Shown here one piece after another: positions 1,261 to 14,572 of a stretch of DNA of 14,572 nucleotides. The stretch lies in IMG/VR virus record IMGVR_UViG_2648501787_000012; one strand, given 5' to 3'. The DNA is from a virus. Taxonomy: Duplodnaviria > Heunggongvirae > Uroviricota > Caudoviricetes. The translations under genes and the position numbers were made by a program. Below the pieces are notes generated by a model. It made no database searches. It was not told the origin of the DNA and saw only the letters and a list, made by a program, of their open reading frames with translations. Each line of letters starts with the position of its first letter. Positions within the stretch are counted from its first letter, which is position 1.

Positions 1261-1355
1261 CTGAATAGATTGAGCCTAGCTCGACGGGGCGAAAAGCGGG
1301 AAGCCTTACCGCCTGGCTCAATCACAAAATAAGGCGCAGCGTAAAAGGTGACGCA

Positions 1356-3916: not shown

Positions 3917-4088
3917 GCCAACAGGAACACCACAACCACAAAAACGCTACAAAGATGCCCACGGAGCACTCGTTACTGTCGAAAGCGTGTCTCACAACCG
4001 AGTGACGTTTTATCGCGACGGGTATCAATCGCCATGCGTACAACCGCTGGCGCGTTTCATGAAGGAGTTCGCGGAGGTTAACCAATGA
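3909..4088 (+). CDS. Small hypothetical protein (59 aa)
   Basis: ATG at 3909 overlaps the upstream stop (ATGTCTAA) and is preceded by a strong SD, GGAGG at 3898-3902. The track ORF 3822..4088 is in the same frame, but its first Met has no RBS and would overlap the upstream gene by about 95 nt. Confidence 0.55.
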   Translation: MSKPTGTPQPQKRYKDAHGALVTVESVSHNRVTFYRDGYQSPCVQPLARFMKEFAEVNQ

Positions 4089-5152
4089 TACCCGTCCAGA
4101 AGAAGACATTTTCACTGGCTGGTATGTCGCCAAAATCCAGCAATATGACGGCAAAGTCAGGCATTAATACAGCAGATACAAGCAAAGTTTATCATTTGCT
4201 GGTGGTCGGAACGGATGCCTTAACCATACCAGAAATCTCGGGCGATGATATTAGCATTGAGAAGGTCAGCGGCTGCGCCAGAAAATTTCTGGTCGTAGAT
4301 GATGTCTTCCGCTCGCGTAGTGACTCCACAAAAACCTTCATCCGCGCGCGTGACGTTAACGAAATGAGCGCGATGTACTGTGCATCTGGTGCTTCCAATA
4401 GCGAGTTTTCGGAGTCCATAAAAAAGAGCTTGCCGTTATGCGGCAACACGGTTTATGGTTATAAGGCACCTCATAAAACGGGTGCCGGGATTGGCGTCCT
4501 GGTAAATCGAATGGCGACATATGACGCGCCGAGCGTCTTTTTTTATGTCGTAGGTCTGACTCACCCATTTTTTGGGCGTTGGTGTATAATCCAGCGCCTT
4601 TGTCAATCAATGGTGGCTCAGGCAGGGGCTTCTTCGGAAGCGCCGGTATCCATTCGAGCCGGTTACGCCAACCCTGTCTGGGCTACCACCAGCGAAATTG
4701 GCGTTTCCGGTGGTAGCGTTACATGCTATCGAATGGAGGCTGCCACATGCTGGCTACTACCCCTACCCAAAAACCGCAATTTATCTGGATTATCGCCGCA
4801 GTTCGCCGCGATTGCCCGACAATTACCGCCAGAATTCATCATATTGCTGCCGAGTCTGAACGCGATGCTCGCCGTTCTCTGGTGCGCGATCACGTCTGCT
4901 TTTTTGCTGGTCGTATCCGCATGGAGGTGGCACATGATTAAAACCTACGATGTGCATATGGATCCCCTCGAACGCACAAGCCAGATCATCACACTGACAG
5001 AAGTGATTAACGACATTCTGGTGAGCAACTCTCCCTCACGAGACGAAAGACTGAAGGCGTTACTCGCGATATTGGATCTCGCCGTTCGTGACGTTCATTT
5101 CCTGCTGGAAGGTGGCGAAATGCCAGTAAAAACGGGGGCAACCAATGAATAA
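4085..5152 (+). CDS. Uncertain long ORF (355 aa), probably a chimeric open frame rather than one protein
   Basis: ATG at 4085 overlaps the upstream stop (ATGA) and has a strong SD (GGAGG 4073-4077). Codon choice looks coding-like from 4085 to about 4580. The same frame then runs without a stop through the candidate RNA region and through the Icd-like gene (different frame) where its codons look poor (cta cta ccc cta ... tta), and merges with the 72-aa ORF at 4934. Either a real 5' gene whose end is obscured (frameshift/pseudogene) or a fortuitous open frame. Confidence 0.3.
4595..4725 (+). ncRNA. Candidate CI/C4-type antisense immunity RNA (P4 CI RNA / P1 C4 / IsrK-like)
   Basis: Perfect -10 TATAAT at 4585-4590 with a weak -35. 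GC-rich structured segment follows: UUCG-tetraloop hairpin GCTTC-TTCG-GAAGC (4628-4641), a short CCGG/CCGG stem (4643-4662) presenting the loop TATCCATTCGAG, and a 9-bp stem GCTACCACC (4682-4690) / GGTGGTAGC (4709-4717). Loop bases TCCATTCGA (4649-4657) are exactly complementary to TCGAATGGA (4729-4737), which overlaps the SD of the Icd-like gene, and to TCGAATGG upstream (4507-4514). Boundaries are approximate. Confidence 0.35.
4747..4941 (+). CDS. Host cell division inhibitor Icd-like small protein
   Basis: 64-aa ORF ([22 protein letters not shown]...[24 protein letters not shown]) with strong SD GGAGG (4735-4739) 7 nt upstream and E. coli-like codon choice. The ...SER.ARR.L.RD.V.FFAGR motif matches my recollection of the Icd-like family that follows C4-type RNAs. 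The track ORF starts at 4723, but 4747 has the RBS. Confidence 0.55.
   Translation: MLATTPTQKPQFIWIIAAVRRDCPTITARIHHIAAESERDARRSLVRDHVCFFAGRIRMEVAHD
4934..5152 (+). CDS. Small hypothetical protein (72 aa)
   Basis: ATG overlaps the Icd-like stop (cacATGATTAAa) and is preceded by GGAGGTGG (4924-4931). Good codon choice. Same frame as the uncertain 355-aa ORF, so it may be that ORF's C-terminus. Confidence 0.45.
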   Translation: MIKTYDVHMDPLERTSQIITLTEVINDILVSNSPSRDERLKALLAILDLAVRDVHFLLEGGEMPVKTGATNE

Positions 5153-5339
5153 CTCAATTAATACCCCTCGCCTTACGTCCGCACTTCAATTAATCGAGCA
5201 AGCAGCGGCTGTCCTGGTTGCTGTCAGTCTTTCGGCTGAAGAAATGGACGCTACTGATGTCGTGGATGCGATTAAAGCGTGCTCATCTTTGGTTAACGAT
5301 GCCCGTGCAGAGCTGGTAATTCTTGGGGGTGAAAAATGA
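5145..5339 (+). CDS. Small hypothetical protein (64 aa)
   Basis: Start overlaps upstream stop (ATGAATAA); part of a coupled small-gene array. Confidence 0.6.
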   Translation: MNNSINTPRLTSALQLIEQAAAVLVAVSLSAEEMDATDVVDAIKACSSLVNDARAELVILGGEK

Positions 5340-5599
5340 ATATCAACTTAATTTATCGTCATCCGTGTGAGCTGGAAATTGAATCATTGCTGAGCCGTGA
5401 AGAACCATATCCAGACACATTCACTCTTGCAGATCGCACGACTGAACGGCTTACCAGAGCGCGCACAGGTCTGGTTCATGTGATGAATGAGATTCTTCCA
5501 TCGGTGGGAGGGGAACAGGCGACAGTAATCACTAGCTGGCTACAAAAAGTTACCTCTCTGATAGATATCAGTTTAATCGATGCGGAGAGTGCGAAATGA
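5336..5599 (+). CDS. Small hypothetical protein (87 aa)
   Basis: Start overlaps upstream stop (ATGA); same array. Confidence 0.6.
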   Translation: MNINLIYRHPCELEIESLLSREEPYPDTFTLADRTTERLTRARTGLVHVMNEILPSVGGEQATVITSWLQKVTSLIDISLIDAESAK

Positions 5600-5817
5600 C
5601 CAACATCCAGCTCATTGAAGCGCAATGTCGCATCGAACAGGTTCAGACTGTTTTAGGGTTCTGGCTTGAAGGGGCCAGCCCCAGCAACAGAGACAAGTTA
5701 ATGATTGGCGCGGTTATGTCACTGCTCAATGGCGTACCAGAAGCTATTCAGGAAGCAGACGAATTGTTGGGCAAATATGAGTTACAGAATCATTCAGGCG
5801 AGGCGAAACATGAATAA
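5596..5817 (+). CDS. Small hypothetical protein (73 aa)
   Basis: Start overlaps upstream stop (ATGA); same array. Confidence 0.6.
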   Translation: MTNIQLIEAQCRIEQVQTVLGFWLEGASPSNRDKLMIGAVMSLLNGVPEAIQEADELLGKYELQNHSGEAKHE

Positions 5818-6412
5818 TTTCTTAACTTTCCAGGCAGAAGCAACGCCTGACGGCGTAAACATCATGCACCGCAGCAACGATGGCATGACAGAACGCGTTG
5901 AGACCGTCTCATATATTGATGCCGTAAATCGTCTGGATGCCGGGGATTATGACGATAAACCAGATGAAGGTATGTCAATACATCTCGCTATTGCCGATGG
6001 CGGCAACCAGGGATATTTCGATTACACATCACAGCATAACGTCATTATGTGGAGATGGTTGATCGCAACAGTATTCATGCTGGAAATGAGAGAGGAAAAC
6101 GGCACTGTCAGCATCATTGATGATACTGGCAATCCTTCCGAAGTGGCTGTTTATTCCAACGGCATCGTCGCCATGCCGCTGTATCCAGTAGCAGAGCGCC
6201 TCGCTATGGCAAACAACATTGAGGGCGCGATGATAGAACGTTTTGGCATCGAGTCTGGCACAGAACGCTCCATCATTTTCTACAGAGCCATGATGGATGT
6301 GGAACAAGGAGCACTGACTCCATTTGGTCGTGAAACGCTTGCTGAACTTCACAACAGCTTTATAGCTGAACTGAATGAAAACGGCATGCCATCGGAACCA
6401 GTGACGCACTGA
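5810..6412 (+). CDS. Hypothetical protein (200 aa)
   Basis: ATG at 5810 overlaps the upstream stop (ATGAATAA) and has a GGCGAGG SD-like sequence. The track ORF start at 5705 would overlap the upstream gene by over 100 nt and lacks an RBS. Confidence 0.65.
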   Translation: MNNFLTFQAEATPDGVNIMHRSNDGMTERVETVSYIDAVNRLDAGDYDDKPDEGMSIHLAIADGGNQGYFDYTSQHNVIMWRWLIATVFMLEMREENGTVSIIDDTGNPSEVAVYSNGIVAMPLYPVAERLAMANNIEGAMIERFGIESGTERSIIFYRAMMDVEQGALTPFGRETLAELHNSFIAELNENGMPSEPVTH

Positions 6413-6422
6413 GGATGGAACC

Positions 6423-6764
6423 ATGATTACTAAAAATTTCCGACTGAATGCGCTGGCAAATAAGTATGCGTCAGCACTGTATAACCACATTACCTCCACC
6501 AGCGGCGGGGACTATTTCATGATTGATGCGGACGGAGAGGCCGTACGTGTGGAAATCGTCAATGGAGTAAAAGGCGTTCGCAGCCTGATCGATAGTTACG
6601 CACTGGCAGCCATGAAAGTGTTCTACCCGCAGTGGGAAACCGTGGGGATCGAGCTTCTTGATCGTTGCGTCACTAAGGACAGATTGACTGACGTCGGGCG
6701 TGAGATATGGCAAAGCATGGTTAATGACATGGGCGCAACTGTAGCGGGAGGTTCTCATGCGTGA
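6423..6764 (+). CDS. Hypothetical protein (113 aa)
   Basis: ORF with SD-like GAGGATGG upstream of the ATG at 6423. Confidence 0.65.
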   Translation: MITKNFRLNALANKYASALYNHITSTSGGDYFMIDADGEAVRVEIVNGVKGVRSLIDSYALAAMKVFYPQWETVGIELLDRCVTKDRLTDVGREIWQSMVNDMGATVAGGSHA

Positions 6765-7128
6765 AAATGCAGAAATGGCGCTTAGCTCCGCAATCGGAGA
6801 GCAGGTGGCAAAGATTGCTGGTGCTGTGTGGATTCATAACCTTCATTCTACTGGTGAAGAGAAAATGGCAATTCAGACGCCAGAGGGACGCACTATTACT
6901 ACATCTCTGAAGCCGTCAGATGTTTGTGATCTGATTTGCGCATTCATGTACCCAGCAATGAGGACTGTCCACGGCGATAAGTGGAAACTTGCGACAACCG
7001 CTGAATTTGATATGTGGCTAAACAATGATGGCATGCTGACTGATTACGGAATAACCAAGTGGCAGATGCTGGTTAGCCATATCGCAAACGCTATAGACCA
7101 CGTGGGGTACGGTGATGCGAAACATTGA
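6757..7128 (+). CDS. Hypothetical protein (123 aa)
   Basis: Start overlaps upstream stop (ATGCGTGA); its 3' end overlaps the primase start. Confidence 0.65.
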   Translation: MRENAEMALSSAIGEQVAKIAGAVWIHNLHSTGEEKMAIQTPEGRTITTSLKPSDVCDLICAFMYPAMRTVHGDKWKLATTAEFDMWLNNDGMLTDYGITKWQMLVSHIANAIDHVGYGDAKH

Positions 7129-9871
7129 TCTTATCCGTCAGGTTATCAGTGCGTCTGAAAACAACTGGCCTCATGTGCTGGGCTGCCTGAACATAAATGT
7201 CCCTGACTCTCCGCGCCGTCATGCTCCCTGCCCTGCATGTGGGGGCAAAGATCGATTCCGGTTCGATGACAACGGGCGCGGTAGCTTCATCTGTAATCAG
7301 TGCGGCGCTGGTGATGGGCTGGATTTAATTAAACGCGTAAATAACTGCGACACAACAGAGGCGGCGCTGCTTGCCGCTGATGTTCTGGGTATTGATTACC
7401 GGACAACGGAAACACCAGAAGCCACCAGCCAGAAACGGGAACAACTGGAAACCGAGCGCCAGCAACGCGAACAGGAGCGCCTGAAAAGGGCGGAGAAGGA
7501 CGAACAACAAAGACGGGATACGTTTTCCCGTCAGTTTGATGACATGCGCAGAAAGGCTGTAAACGGCAAATCTGATTATCTGGTTGCGAAAGGGGTAGGT
7601 GATTTTACATTCCCCGTGTTGCCCGATGGATCTCTGTTGCTGGCGCTGGTGGATAAATCCGGCGCAGTCACAGCAGCACAGACTATTACCTCACATGGTG
7701 AAAAAAGACTCCTGACAGGTTCAGCAAAGCGGGGGGCATATCACGCCATAAACGCACCAGAAACAACACAGAGCATCTTAATCGCAGAAGGGCTGGCAAC
7801 GGCATTATCTGCCCATTTAATTCGTCCAGAGGCGCTGACAGTGGCGGCGATTGATGCCGGGAACCTGTTATATGTCGCCCAGGTACTGCGGGATAAATTT
7901 CCTTCAGCACAAATCATCATTGCTGCGGATAACGACCACAGCGAAGGAAGACAAAACACGGGGAGAATAGCAGCAGAAAAAGCAGCTTTATCTGTTTCTG
8001 GATGGGTGGCATTACCCCCGACAGGTCACAAAGCAGACTGGAATGATTACCACCAAAAACACGGCATTAAATGCGCCACAGAAGCGTTCAATAAGTCAAT
8101 GTACCAACCACAGGGTAATGGCGTGAAACAGGAGCCACAGACCATTGAGGGAAGCGATTTTAAGGTTATGGATACCGACCCACTGAAACCAAGAATAGAA
8201 AGCCGCGAGGATGGTATTTATTGGGTATCTCCGAGAGCTGACAGCCAGAGTGGAGAAATCATCAATAACGAAAGCTGGTTATGTTCTCCGTTAAGCGTTA
8301 TCGGTACTGGCAGAGACGATAAAGACCAGTATCTCATTCTTCGCTGGCTGTCGTTTGGTTCTGAAACGCCGACAACCGCTGCCATTCCACTGGCTGATAT
8401 TGGTGAACGTGAAGGATGGCGCACACTTAAAGCTGGTGGGGTAAATGTCACGACCAAAAGCAGCCTCAGAGCAATACTGGCAGACTGGCTACAACGCAGT
8501 GGCTCTCGTGAATTGTGGCGTGTTGCTCATGCCACTGGCTGGCAATGCGGAGCGTACATCATGCCTGATGGGGAAATCATCGGAACACCTGAAAATCCTG
8601 TGCTGTTCAGCGGGAGAAGCTCAGCCGCAGCCGGATATACCGTCTCAGGGAGCGCGCAAAGCTGGCGTGATAACGTGGCGCGTCTGGCCTTTGGTAACTA
8701 TTCAATGATGACCGGGATCGGCGCAGCACTGGCAGCACCATTGATTGGGCTGGTGGGCGCTGACGGGTTCGGCATTCATTTCTATGAGCAGTCGAGCGCA
8801 GGTAAGACCACCACGGCAAACGTGGCGAGCAGCTTATACGGCAACCCTGATTTACTGCGGCTGACGTGGTACGGAACCGCGCTGGGGCTGGCAAATGAGG
8901 CCGCCGCCCACAATGACGGACTAATGCCGCTTGATGAAGTTGGTCAGGGCGCTGATCCTGTCAGCGTTTCACAGTCTGCCTATGCGTTATTTAACGGTGT
9001 AGGGAAACTGCAAGGCGCTAAAGATGGTGGAAACCGGGATCTAAAACGCTGGCGTACAGTGGCAATCAGCACCGGAGAAATGGATTTAGAAACATTTATC
9101 GCTACTTCCGGGCGAAAAACCAAAGCCGGGCAACTGGTGCGACTGCTGAATATTCCGTTGAGTAAAGCAGTACGCTTTCACGATTACCAGAACGGAAAAC
9201 AGCACGCAGACGCACTGAAAGACGCTTACCAGCATCACCATGGCGCAGCCGGGCGTGAGTGGATTAAATGGCTGGCAGACCACCAGCAACAGGCTATTAA
9301 AACTGTTCGTGATTGCGAAAGCAGATGGAGAAGCCTGATCCCACCCGATTATGGTGAGCAGGTTCACCGTGTAGCCGCGCGATTTGCCATTCTGGAGGCC
9401 GCATTGTTGTTAGGCGAGGTTGTAACAGGCTGGGATGCTCAGACATGCCGTGATGCGATACAGCACAGCTATAACGCATGGTTGCGCGAGTTCGGCACAG
9501 GTAACAAAGAGCATCAGCAGATTATTGAACAAACGGAGGCATTTCTTAATGCCTATGGGCTTAGCCGTTTTGCACCATTTCCATACAGCCCGGCAGATTT
9601 GCCCATCAAAGATTTAGCCGGATACCGTCAGCGTGGAGAACATGACGAAAGCCCAATGATTTTCTACACATTCCCGGCCACATTTGAAAAGGAGATCGCA
9701 TGTGGTTTCAACGCAAAACAGTTTGCTGAAGTGTTGAAAAAAGCCGGGATGCTAACCCCACCAAACAGCGGTCGTGGATACCAAAGAAAATCACCACGTA
9801 TTCAGGGACGACAAATAAACGTTTATGTACTCAATTACCAGCCAGGAGATTATAACTCATCTGAAGAATGA
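7112..9871 (+). CDS. P4 alpha-type DNA primase/helicase (zinc ribbon + TOPRIM + P-loop NTPase)
   Basis: 919-aa ORF. N-terminal zinc ribbon CPACGGKDRFRFDDNGRGSFICNQCG; TOPRIM signatures ILIAEGLATALS and IIIAADNDHSEGR; Walker A-like FYEQSSAGKTTT in the C-terminal half. Domain order matches phage P4 alpha and related satellite primases. Confidence 0.93.
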   Translation: MMRNIDLIRQVISASENNWPHVLGCLNINVPDSPRRHAPCPACGGKDRFRFDDNGRGSFICNQCGAGDGLDLIKRVNNCDTTEAALLAADVLGIDYRTTETPEATSQKREQLETERQQREQERLKRAEKDEQQRRDTFSRQFDDMRRKAVNGKSDYLVAKGVGDFTFPVLPDGSLLLALVDKSGAVTAAQTITSHGEKRLLTGSAKRGAYHAINAPETTQSILIAEGLATALSAHLIRPEALTVAAIDAGNLLYVAQVLRDKFPSAQIIIAADNDHSEGRQNTGRIAAEKAALSVSGWVALPPTGHKADWNDYHQKHGIKCATEAFNKSMYQPQGNGVKQEPQTIEGSDFKVMDTDPLKPRIESREDGIYWVSPRADSQSGEIINNESWLCSPLSVIGTGRDDKDQYLILRWLSFGSETPTTAAIPLADIGEREGWRTLKAGGVNVTTKSSLRAILADWLQRSGSRELWRVAHATGWQCGAYIMPDGEIIGTPENPVLFSGRSSAAAGYTVSGSAQSWRDNVARLAFGNYSMMTGIGAALAAPLIGLVGADGFGIHFYEQSSAGKTTTANVASSLYGNPDLLRLTWYGTALGLANEAAAHNDGLMPLDEVGQGADPVSVSQSAYALFNGVGKLQGAKDGGNRDLKRWRTVAISTGEMDLETFIATSGRKTKAGQLVRLLNIPLSKAVRFHDYQNGKQHADALKDAYQHHHGAAGREWIKWLADHQQQAIKTVRDCESRWRSLIPPDYGEQVHRVAARFAILEAALLLGEVVTGWDAQTCRDAIQHSYNAWLREFGTGNKEHQQIIEQTEAFLNAYGLSRFAPFPYSPADLPIKDLAGYRQRGEHDESPMIFYTFPATFEKEIACGFNAKQFAEVLKKAGMLTPPNSGRGYQRKSPRIQGRQINVYVLNYQPGDYNSSEE

Positions 9872-10633: not shown

Positions 10634-11095
10634 ATGGAACTAAAATTTATTGATAACCCGGTGCGATTACAGGCCTTTCTTAACGAGCCTGGCAATACCG
10701 AAAATATTGTTGAGCCGGGGCACACGTACTACATCAAGCCTGATGCGGTATATCTCGGCATCTACGAAGGATTAGTGCTGACAGGCGTTCATGAAGTGCG
10801 TAACTTCTGGCATAGCATTGTTGAATGCCATGCGGTGTACGACCCCGGATTCCGTGGTGAATATGCACTGCAAGGGCATCGATTGTTCTGCAAATGGCTT
10901 CTCGAAAACTCACCATTCCTTAACAGCATCACCATGGTTCCTGACACCACGAAATACGGACGGGCAATTATCCGTTTGCTTGGCGCTACCCGTGTTGGTC
11001 ACCTGGCCGATGCATATATCAGATGTGGTAAACCCGTCGGCGTAACGCTTTATCAGTTAACACGGCAACAATATAAGGAACTCAGCGAATGTTAA
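10634..11095 (+). CDS. Hypothetical phage protein (153 aa), first gene of the ejection-protein-like operon
   Basis: Globular-looking protein with several His/Cys. Its stop overlaps the next start (ATGTTAA). Positionally analogous to P22 gp14, but homology is not established. Confidence 0.75.
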   Translation: MELKFIDNPVRLQAFLNEPGNTENIVEPGHTYYIKPDAVYLGIYEGLVLTGVHEVRNFWHSIVECHAVYDPGFRGEYALQGHRLFCKWLLENSPFLNSITMVPDTTKYGRAIIRLLGATRVGHLADAYIRCGKPVGVTLYQLTRQQYKELSEC

Positions 11096-11766
11096 TTACC
11101 CATATAGCTCATAAACATCTCAATCGTGCCGTATACGAAAAAGGCGGTGATGGTGGTGCCTCTAAAGCCCAGGCGAAGGCCCAGCAGCAGGCAATTGATT
11201 TGCAGCGCGAGCAGTGGAATACGGTGATGAATAATCTCAAGCCGTATGCAGAAGTCGGATTGCCTGCTTTACAACAACTGCAAGGACTGATGACTCTGGA
11301 AGGGCAGAATAAAGCCGCGAATGATTTCTTTGGTTCTGGTTTATATAAAACACAGGCAGATCAGGCCCGTTATCAGAACCTTGTCTCAGCAGAAGCTACC
11401 GGGGGGCTTGGCTCAACAGCTACCAGTAACCAGTTATCTTCCATTGCGCCCATGCTTTATAACAATTGGCTTAGTGGGCAAATGCAAAATTATGGAAACC
11501 TGCTAAATGTCGGGATGAATGCGGCATCAGGGCAGGCAACAGCAGGGCAAAACTACGCCAATAATACCGGACAACTCTTGCAGGGGCTTGGCGCTATTCG
11601 TGCAGGTCAGGCGCAGCAGCCATCCAGTCTTGCGCGTGGTATTGGTGGGGCGGCATCAGGCGCTTTAGCGGGTGCGCAACTTGGTTCCGTTGTTCCGGGT
11701 ATAGGTAATGTCGCCGGGGCTATTGGTGGTGGGCTTATTGGTCTTGTTGGGGGGCTTGGATTCTAA
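11089..11766 (+). CDS. Putative phage DNA ejection/transfer protein (P22 gp7-like by size and composition)
   Basis: 225-aa protein, Q/A/N/G-rich and low complexity, with a glycine-zipper-like hydrophobic C-terminus (GIGGAASGALAGAQLGSVVPGIGNVAGAIGGGLIGLVGGLGF). Coupled to neighbours by overlapping stop/start. Confidence 0.8.
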   Translation: MLITHIAHKHLNRAVYEKGGDGGASKAQAKAQQQAIDLQREQWNTVMNNLKPYAEVGLPALQQLQGLMTLEGQNKAANDFFGSGLYKTQADQARYQNLVSAEATGGLGSTATSNQLSSIAPMLYNNWLSGQMQNYGNLLNVGMNAASGQATAGQNYANNTGQLLQGLGAIRAGQAQQPSSLARGIGGAASGALAGAQLGSVVPGIGNVAGAIGGGLIGLVGGLGF

Positions 11767-13186
11767 TGACGACATGGCAACTTGGCGGGCTGCCTAGCAT
11801 GGCACCGCAAAATGATAATGCTCCTCGTTCTTCCGTTCCTCAGCCTGTGCAGTATCAGCAGCAGCCAAACGTAGGTTTAATGGCGCTACAGGGGCTAAGA
11901 GGCGTTGCTGAGATTAATCAGCAGGCACGTCAACAACAGCGTAAATCAGAGTTTCAGAAAGCATATGCCGGGGCTTTTGAGTCTGGAGACAGAAACAAAA
12001 TGCGCAGTCTTATTTCTGAGTATCCAGAAGAATTTGAAAGCGTTCAGAAAGGGATGGGCTTTATTGATGACGACCAGAGAAATTCTATTGGTCATCTTGC
12101 GACTAGTGCTCAAATCGCATCTTCGCTCGGAACTGGGGCATTTGGAAAATTCATAGCAGATAACGAAGATGAAATGCGTCGCTTGGGAATTTCTCCTGAG
12201 TCTGTTGCCGAAATGCATGTTAATGATCCACAGGGATTCCAGCGGCTTGCTGGTAGTATGGCACTGTTTTCTCTCGGTCATGAGAAGTATTTCAATATCA
12301 AAGATCAAATGGAAGGTCGGGATATTGAGCGAGGCAGGCTGGCAGAGACAATCCGCAGCAATCAGGCTGGCGAAGCACTTCAGGCGAGAGGGCAGGATAT
12401 TAGCCGAGCAAATGCGTTAACGTCAGCATATGCACCAACAGCAGCAATGCAGAATTACAATCAGTACGCTCAAATGTTAAAGGCGGATCCAGAGGGGGCG
12501 GCGGCATTTGCGGCAGCGGCTGGAATTAATACAAACGCCAAAAAATTAATGAGTGTTAGAGAAAACGATGATGGCACTGTCACAAAATACTACACAGACG
12601 GAAGTGAAGAGCAGGGAAAACTAAACCAGCCAATATCTGGAGATGGGTTTCGTCCAATAGCTTTGCCAACAGCCCAAAAGATCATGGAAAAGTCGCCAGA
12701 AGGGGCTAAAAAAGCTGCTGGATTTGCATACAGGGTTAGGGATGCTCTTGATTCAATAGATACACTGAAAGACCAGCTTAGCCCACAGCGAGTGGCGATC
12801 ATTAATAATGCTTTGGGTAATGGGACGCTGGCTAACTTAACGCTCAGCCCAACAGAGCAGCAATACGTTGTTAATGCTAATGACGCAATAATGGCAATAC
12901 TCCGTCAGGAAACAGGGGCAGCTATCGTACCTGCTGAAATGTCAAAATATTATCAAATGTATTTCCCTCAGCCTGGCGACTCCACAAAAACCATTGATAC
13001 CAAGCGCCGGAAGATGGAAAACCAGTTCAATTCGCTGAAAGCTGCTTCTGGTCGAGCTTATGATGCTTTGCGGGTTATTTCAGCAGTTGACAGAGGAACG
13101 TCTTCTTCGTCGCAGACATTGCCGCAATCTGAGCAGGTATCACAGCCAGCAGCCAGCAGTAACTTTTCTTCACTATGGGGTGATTA

Positions 13187-13187
<1 letters not shown>
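11766..13187 (+). CDS. Putative phage DNA ejection/transfer protein (P22 gp20-like by size and order)
   Basis: 473-aa protein, Q/A/S-rich, start overlaps upstream stop (TAATG). Sizes of the coupled genes here (225, 473, 461 aa) parallel the P22 gp7-gp20-gp16 ejection-protein trio as I recall it (about 229, 471, 609 aa). Recollection, not an alignment. Confidence 0.85.

Positions 13188-14572
<1,385 letters not shown>

Follow-up and report, generated by a model that had tools for sequence, protein, structure and literature searches.

A probable P4-type RNA immunity module, with isrK-like and C4-like RNAs upstream of an Icd/Kil-like gene, in a putative Escherichia coli satellite island

We analyzed a 14,572-nucleotide stretch of viral DNA (Caudoviricetes; IMG/VR record IMGVR_UViG_2648501787_000012), referred to here as the window. 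An initial annotation, made from the letters alone, had proposed that a segment upstream of an Icd-like gene encodes an antisense RNA like the CI RNA of P4 and the C4 RNA of P1. Our analysis indicates that the region is very probably an RNA immunity module of the type found in P4 and in satellites known as phage-inducible chromosomal islands (PICIs), homologous to both the seqA-CI-seqC arrangement of P4 and the a1b1-c4-a2b2-icd arrangement of P1. The proposed antisense RNA is borne out by matches to the Rfam C4 and isrK families, by covariation, by the Icd-like gene and by a layout shared with P4 and the P1-like RCS47. Switches of this kind have already been described in P1, P4, Gifsy-1 and PICIs, and the window carries an ordinary copy of a known switch.

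The region contains C4-like and isrK-like RNA elements

A covariance-model search had been suggested as a check on the proposed RNA, and both families expected of such a module were recovered above threshold. We found that positions 4606-4693 of the plus strand match the Rfam C4 antisense RNA family (RF01695) with 79.5 bits, against a gathering threshold of 45 bits, and that the match covers model positions 1-87 of 87. Positions 4466-4543, on the same strand, match isrK (RF01394), the homolog of P4 seqA, with 67.1 bits over model positions 1-77 of 77, the gathering threshold here being 50 bits. The motifs from which the RNA had been proposed (TATAAT, the UUCG hairpin, TCCATTCGA, TCGAATGGA, TCGAATGG and GGAGG) all lie where they had been placed.

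Folding of 4606-4693 gave a minimum free energy (MFE) of -47.2 kcal/mol (z = -5.8), and none of 200 shuffled sequences folded as well. The MFE structure of the C4 part is identical to the consensus of the Rfam model. It consists of a 17-bp closing stem (4611-4627 with 4672-4688), the UUCG hairpin GCTTC-TTCG-GAAGC at 4628-4641, a second hairpin that carries the recognition sequence b' in a loop of about 12 nt, and a single-stranded junction. The trinucleotide CCA at 4689-4691 adjoins the closing stem directly. The C4 RNA of P1 and P7 is a substrate of RNase P. By analogy, the tRNA-like stem and the CCA are supportive of a stable RNA of about 77-80 nt that would be processed at its 5' end by RNase P and would act as a repressor in trans.

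The isrK element is made up of two hairpins, with the site a1 in the loop of the second, a single-stranded linker containing b1, and an intrinsic terminator found by a terminator scan (stem 4523-4537, followed by a run of seven T at 4538-4544). The complementary site noted earlier upstream of the antisense RNA is present at 4507-4514; however, it is more than a lone site, being part of an isrK/seqA-type RNA with its own terminator. We then aligned 15 isrK-type loci that share the window's spacing, and all counts given below for the 15 relatives refer to this alignment. The three C4 helices are 100% paired in the relatives, with 9 pairs changed on both sides, and compensatory changes are also seen in isrK hairpin 1 and in the terminator. 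The Rfam c4-a1b1 motif (RF03163) was considered as a description of the upstream element and rejected. It scored 17.9 bits at 4453-4505, under its threshold of 46.7 bits, and the isrK model fits better; a single relative, L003, barely attains the RF03163 threshold with 47.0 bits.

Table 1. Positions of the module's elements and neighboring features in the window
Feature	Positions	Strand	Basis or remark
Eta-like read-through open reading frame, 355 codons, frame 2	4085-5152	+	RefSeq pseudogene 'ash family protein'
Putative conserved sigma-70-like promoter of the immunity transcript	4430-4459	+	Conservation in 15 relatives
isrK / P4 seqA-like leader RNA	4466-4543	+	Rfam RF01394; terminator scan
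a1 target, TTGGCGT	4491-4497	+	Loop of isrK hairpin 2; complementary to a'
b1 target, TCGAATGG	4507-4514	+	isrK linker; 8-nt exact complement of b'
Perfect TATAAT	4585-4590	+	Lineage-specific; without usable -35
C4 / P4 CI-like antisense RNA	4606-4693	+	Rfam RF01695; MFE fold; compensatory changes
b' recognition loop, UCCAUUCGA (TCCATTCGA)	4649-4657	+	Loop of second C4 hairpin
a' recognition segment, ACGCCAA	4665-4671	+	C4 single-stranded junction
a2 target, TTGGCGT	4698-4704	+	Downstream mRNA; 7-nt exact complement of a'
c2 segment, GGTGGTAGC	4709-4717	+	Can pair with 3' arm of C4 stem, 4682-4690
b2 target, TCGAATGGA	4729-4737	+	9-nt exact reverse complement of b'; overlaps Shine-Dalgarno sequence GGAGG, 4735-4739
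Icd/Kil-like gene, 64 aa	4747-4941	+	NCBIfam NF033153; P4 Kil similarity
Tightly packed operon to DUF927/Toprim primase (7112-9871, 919 aa)	4934-9871	+	Presumed cargo

Two sets of complementary sites co-vary among relatives

The initial annotation described one recognition loop complementary to one upstream and one downstream site. This set, which we call b, is exact at all three positions, but it is one of two. A second set, a, which had been overlooked, pairs ACGCCAA in the C4 junction with TTGGCGT in the isrK hairpin and again in the downstream mRNA (Table 1), so that there are two sets as in P1. The locus has the full P1-style order a1-b1, b'-a', a2-b2. Predicted duplex energies of C4 with a2 and b2 are about -9 and -12 kcal/mol.

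Chance complementarity was considered and rejected. The 8-mer of the b set or its complement is found three times in the 14.5 kb, all within 230 nt. In dinucleotide shuffles the mean was 0.49, and only 1 of 200 shuffles reached three copies. A search of viral contigs with a pattern for the conserved C4 core yielded about 80 C4-like loci, 53 of them unique and with usable flanks. The sequences of a' and b' are highly diverse among these 53 loci. Nonetheless, a 7-nt complement of a' lies upstream in 47 and downstream in 44 of them, and a complement of b' of at least 7 nt lies upstream in 34 and downstream in 41. The complements occupy fixed offsets, and their length of 7-8 nt compares with an average of 4.5-5 nt in controls in which loci were swapped.

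The 15 relatives provide a further test, since conservation of the sites with compensatory changes had been named as one. We found that a1:a' is 100% paired with 6 of 7 pairs changed on both sides, b1:b' 100% paired (6 of 8 changed), a':a2 100% paired (6 of 7) and b':b2 97.8% paired (6 of 9). When the segments were slid along the alignment as a control, 34-48% of positions paired. In all 15 loci a1 equals a2, and both are exact complements of a'. The sites therefore passed this test, with 97.8-100% pairing throughout.

Among the relatives, 14 combinations of five a-types with ten b-types occur. A single b-type is found with three a-types, and one a-type with up to five b-types. This comparison indicates that the a and b specificities assort independently. 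As the sites of the two sets, six in all, are interleaved along the DNA, more than a single crossover would be needed to swap one set without the other.

The downstream target overlaps the ribosome binding site of an Icd/Kil-like gene

After C4, the first gene to be translated starts at ATG 4747, 7 nt after the GGAGG that b2 overlaps. Its product matches NCBIfam NF033153 ('phage_ICD_like') with 71.4 bits, the cut-off being 25 bits, and is 43% identical to P4 Kil (65 aa; E = 1.6e-8). The claim that an Icd-like gene follows the RNA, with its Shine-Dalgarno (SD) sequence overlapped by the complementary site, is confirmed by these results. Compared with the relative L053, icd has 5, 3 and 20 mismatches at codon positions 1, 2 and 3. 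On this comparison we take icd to be truly coding, and its product is a predicted inhibitor of cell division. Most of the unique C4 loci show the b2-SD-ATG arrangement as well. Using a single sequence as the query and crude start-codon calls, phmmer found Icd-like proteins downstream of 7 of 44 other C4 loci, a count of little weight for the generality of the C4-icd pairing. The Prokaryotic Genome Annotation Pipeline (PGAP) starts icd at ATG 4723, a codon that is unconserved even in the relative L036, and 4747 is likely the correct one.

The end of icd overlaps the start codon of the next gene, ATG 4934, which opens a tightly packed operon reaching to the primase gene. By analogy with P4 and P1, the switch presumably controls this operon (4934-9871), and the module most likely keeps the replication genes of the island silent.

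A long reading frame is kept open across both RNA genes

The segment had been described as having a poor coding signal, and conserved protein homologs in frame 2 had been named as evidence that would speak against an RNA. We found that frame 2 holds an open reading frame (ORF) of 355 codons. In an ATGA, its start codon overlaps the stop codon of the DUF4222 gene before it. From there the ORF passes through promoter, isrK, C4 and targets, traverses icd in a different frame and finally joins the gene at 4934-5152 in frame. Amino acids 124-232 of its product (nt ~4454-4780) match Pfam PF10554, Phage_ASH, with 105 bits (E = 3e-30), and the extent of this Phage_ASH or 'ash family protein' region coincides exactly with that of the isrK and C4 RNAs together with their targets. 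Searches of NCBIfam and PHROGs gave no match for the N-terminal 123 aa. Over the promoter and isrK, the spacer and C4, frame 2 has 0 stops in 15 of 15 relatives, whereas the other two frames have 6-34. In L003, L020 and L034 a 1-nt and a 2-nt deletion together restore the frame.

Variability of the frame-2 alignment columns is flat over the three codon positions, at 0.80/0.95/0.84 in the spacer and 0.43/0.50/0.49 in C4. The same is true of pairwise mismatches, which number 29/29/30 in the RNA part against L053 and 13/8/10 in the N-terminal part against L036. Purifying selection on the amino acids of PF10554 was not seen, as the codon positions are flat and conservation tracks the RNA pairings. 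The poor coding signal therefore holds in that codon-position periodicity is lacking, but not in that the frame is uninterrupted for 355 codons and has a Pfam match. Likewise, protein homologs in frame 2 do exist in the form of PF10554, but no selection on their amino acids was found.

Two further observations concern this ORF. Positions 4089-4429 differ from L036 at 9% (31 of 341, with no codon bias) and the flanking AntA and DUF4222 genes at 1-3%, making this part a local hotspot of divergence that is still free of stops. In addition, a conserved AUG at 4610-4612, at the 5' end of C4 (AAUGGUGG), falls in the open ash/eta frame.

Passages of PMC10111431 describe the eta gene of P4 as starting upstream of the immunity promoter, being coupled to the gene before it and being translated only from upstream transcripts, and state that its translation prevents immunity-dependent termination. 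Like eta, the frame-2 ORF starts upstream of the promoter, is coupled upstream and is open across the RNAs and targets. It aligns to the long ORF of P4 with 40% identity over 120 aa (E = 1e-18). In P4 the icd-type gene is nested in the eta frame; this is not so here, where icd is in frame 1 and the long ORF in frame 2. In the window as in L036 and L053, the interval from the SD to a conserved GCTAC of icd (4740-4750) contains 2 additional nt, which puts icd out of frame. The best reading of these comparisons is that frame 2 is kept open for translation, like P4 eta, while the protein is unselected for its sequence. On this reading, PF10554 is best regarded as what two RNA genes and their target sites yield when translated.

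A conserved promoter lies upstream of isrK

Upstream of isrK we found a -35 TTGCCG (4430-4435) and a -10 TATGGT (4454-4459) separated by an 18-nt spacer, with a predicted start at about 4466. The -35 TTG and the -10 TA..GT are invariant across the 15 relatives, which follow the pattern TTG...-18-TA(T/C)(A/G)GT. With 8 of 12 matches to consensus, the site falls under the threshold of the promoter scan. The conservation is suggestive of a promoter from which a short isrK RNA, of a type expected to bind Hfq, would be made. A perfect inverted repeat, TTGCCG-TTATG-CGGCAA at 4430-4446, overlaps the -35 and is shared by the window with L036 alone. In the scan it came up as a terminator-like site on the minus strand, and it could be an operator or a chance occurrence.

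The initial annotation had assigned the perfect TATAAT at 4585-4590 to the antisense RNA as its promoter. This part of the proposal needs correction. Apart from the window, only its nearest relative, L036, has the hexamer, the 13 other relatives having unrelated sequence at those columns. The promoter scan calls nothing there, and no acceptable -35 is available. An extra promoter confined to this lineage is nonetheless conceivable. TATAAT occurs three times in the window when both strands are counted. The conserved promoter is instead the one upstream of isrK.

Proposed mechanism

The following model is built by analogy with the homologous systems, from which we infer how C4 is processed, that termination is Rho-dependent, and what isrK and the translation of eta contribute. 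Transcription would start constitutively at about 4466 from the promoter at 4430-4459, and most transcripts would stop at the isrK terminator (4523-4544), giving an isrK/seqA-like RNA of about 78 nt that contains a1 and b1. Transcripts that read through would carry C4 (about 4611-4690), which would be excised as a stable tRNA-like RNA, as by RNase P in P1. On read-through transcripts made later, a2 and b2 would then be bound in trans by the a' and b' sequences of mature C4. With b2 overlapping the SD of the Icd/Kil-like gene, translation of icd would be blocked; the untranslated RNA would be terminated early, and the coupled operon up to the primase would therefore stay off. Since a1 and b1 have the same sequence as a2 and b2, the isrK copy would either aid termination in cis, as in P4, or titrate and remodel C4 in trans, as in Gifsy-1. 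Finally, when transcription enters from the alpA-antA operon, ribosomes on the 355-codon ORF would cover the sites and make expression insensitive to immunity, as with P4 eta.

Several points weigh against this model. The RNA ends, the processing and the repression that it assigns to the locus are carried over from homologs. The nested eta/kil arrangement of P4 is not reproduced exactly, and the stretch from the SD to GCTAC is 2 nt longer than in P4-type relatives. Because a terminator separates a1 and b1 from C4, the output of C4 would hang on read-through or on another promoter. Lastly, the sign of the isrK contribution is uncertain, and the isrK RNA of Gifsy-1 activates rather than represses.

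Alternative explanations

One alternative is that the region encodes a functional 'Ash family' protein and that its RNA-like features are incidental. The 355-codon frame with its strong PF10554 match, the absence of stops in every relative together with the frame-restoring deletions, and a start codon that overlaps the stop of the upstream gene are what such a protein would predict. The codon positions are not: frame 2 lacks the excess of third-position changes that the neighboring icd displays in the same comparison with L053, the substitutions preserve RNA pairings, and the N-terminal 123 aa are without a match in NCBIfam or PHROGs. The authors of the Gifsy-1 study report the same for orf45, in which the nucleotide sequence is conserved and the amino-acid sequence variable. 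After the codon-position tests we rejected a functional Ash protein as the main explanation, though the frame is kept open, and we regard this alternative as highly improbable. It is also unlikely, though less so, that TATAAT 4585-4590 is a dedicated promoter and that the primary C4 transcript begins at about 4597, independent of read-through at the isrK terminator. In its favor are the perfect -10 hexamer, some 20 nt before the C4 stem begins, and the intrinsic terminator just upstream, which would otherwise restrict the supply of C4. However, in addition to its confinement to two of the aligned loci and its missing -35, deletion of the isrK promoter abolishes the C4-like RNA of Gifsy-1, and according to passages of PMC10111431 the CI RNA of P4 is processed from a transcript begun at a promoter inside eta, upstream of seqA.

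A different view of the same elements is an induction switch of the Gifsy-1 type, in which the isrK-like RNA would open the read-through transcript in trans and activate translation of the genes that follow, and C4 would be mostly a structural part of the mRNA and not a repressor in trans. The isrK element, terminator and C4-like element are ordered as in Gifsy-1. The MFE fold of a 4466-4765 transcript pairs the middle of isrK with C4 in cis, like 'structure A' of the Gifsy-1 paper, and the AUG at 4610-4612 may be the counterpart of the orf45 start. Against this, Gifsy-1 is without icd, whereas the gene that follows b2 in the window is an Icd/Kil homolog whose SD is overlapped by b2, as in P1 and P4, where C4 or CI represses in trans. 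Furthermore, a2 and b2 co-vary with a' and b' as strictly as a1 and b1 do, which is expected of a target in trans. We consider the induction switch possible, if rather less likely than not to be the principal role of the module. The two roles do not exclude each other.

An alternative helix could exclude the C4 fold

The segment c2 can form a helix (4682-4690 with 4709-4717) that displays a2 in an 18-nt loop and excludes the C4 fold. Its pairing in the 15 relatives is 98.5%, and three of its pairs have changed on both sides. Of 56 unique C4 loci, 44 have the helix at a length of at least 7 bp, and its arms co-vary. The helix is also found in P4, and in RCS47 it was seen by eye from the sequence. 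It is absent from the Rfam C4 model, and we found no description of it. We raise it, as a doubtful idea, that c2 is a further conserved element of the C4 family and acts as a conformational switch between maturation of the repressor and the target or expressed form of the mRNA. Such a switch could operate while ribosomes on the eta-like ORF hold the 5' arm of C4. If this were true, the c2 switch together with the reassortment of a and b would make the RNA logic more elaborate and more evolvable than in the textbook C4 model. A third hairpin just upstream of b2 (4712-4718 with 4724-4730) is 92% paired, and its covariation was no better than in shuffles.

The surrounding island and its annotation

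The window contains, in order, an integrase gene, an int-alpA RNA, AlpA, AntA, the RNA module, the primase gene, and genes of the P22 types gp14, gp7, gp20 and gp16. Searches with Pfam, NCBIfam and PHROGs and the RefSeq annotation recovered the zones of a PICI: integrase and AlpA, a Bro zone represented by AntA, the primase, and late captured helper genes. By its gene content the island looks like a Gram-negative PICI or P4-like satellite in E. coli. The int-alpA RNA (Rfam RF02996) lies at 1269-1335 (+), right after the integrase gene, with 60.6 bits against a gathering threshold of 35.8, and between it and the AlpA gene is a 321-aa ORF without a family match. The late zone (10634-14572, +) encodes a gp14-like head morphogenesis protein (DUF2824) and three ejection or DNA-transfer proteins, one with a transglycosylase match, which suggests capture of helper late genes from a P22-like phage.

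In E. coli strain 755 (locus L001) the island is directly downstream of yicC, and 4300-5200 is 100% identical. Of 5426 complete E. coli genomes, 1171 contain sequence matching 4300-5200; most matches have 80-90% identity, and some genomes have up to three copies. In the RefSeq record that we examined, the RNA region is a pseudogene 'ash family protein' and no RNA gene is listed. PHROGs label the Icd/Kil family 'transcriptional repressor', as the P4 record does its 'cI' coding sequence. These 'ash' and 'transcriptional repressor' labels appear to be left over from older annotation of what is an RNA immunity gene. The practical value of our analysis is one of annotation; the biology, RNA immunity as in P1, P7, P4 and Gifsy-1, is textbook knowledge to which little is added. 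Recognizing the module identifies the immunity determinant of the island and its specificity (a = ACGCCAA, b = UCCAUUCGA), and the a and b specificities should predict cross-repression among co-resident satellites or phages.

Comparison with known systems

Others have already written of an 'IsrK-C4 immunity system of P4', and P4 contains the same two Rfam families in the same order as the window: isrK (60.8 bits, 8692-8615, seqA) and C4 (74.9 bits, 8507-8420, CI). The a1-b1 / b'-a' / a2-b2 layout is the same, with b2 running into GGAGG and the kil start. Both also have a long ORF across the RNA genes, as well as an AlpA-type gene on the upstream side and a primase gene on the downstream side. 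The recognition sequences differ, those of P4 being GTGAGAA for both a1 and a2, TTCACAGG for b1 and TTCACAGGA for b2. The spacer from isrK to C4 is 107 nt in P4 and 62 nt in the window, and the C4 tetraloop of P4 is CUCCGG rather than CUUCGG. Whereas eta and kil of P4 share one frame, the long ORF of the window ends at 5152 and is read in a different frame from icd. Finally, the window has a PICI-type gene order with a 919-aa DUF927 primase, in contrast to the sid-delta-psu set of P4.

The P1-like RCS47 likewise has isrK (60.2 bits), C4 (75.4 bits), a2, and b2 over the icd SD in the layout of the window. TTGCGC...TATGCT precedes its isrK, equivalent to the promoter at 4430-4459. Its icd is coupled to ant by overlapping start and stop codons, and icd of the window is coupled to its next gene in the same way. 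However, the controlled gene in P1 is the antirepressor gene ant, while in the window it would be a replication operon. RCS47 is also without an eta-like ORF, as none of the three frames is free of stops in its RNA region (3, 8 and 2 stops).

In the Gifsy-1 locus of Salmonella (IsrK - STnc1160/orf45 - anrP), the isrK RNA ends at a terminator that is partly read through, and downstream of it a processed RNA of about 80 nt is found. The a1:a' pairing (G28/G31 with C162/C159) has been proven there by compensatory mutants, and the dependence of the C4-like RNA on the isrK promoter by deletion. Gifsy-1 resembles the window in having an ORF through the C4-like region, the orf45 product being translated. 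Unlike the window, it has orf45 coupled directly to the antirepressor gene with no icd between them, and its IsrK has been shown to activate in trans.

A further parallel is with the Gram-negative PICIs. Passages of PMC10111431 report that the Rfam C4 and isrK profiles match inside the Bro-network genes of these islands. The order of zones given for them there is that of the window, and we found no difference of substance between the two.

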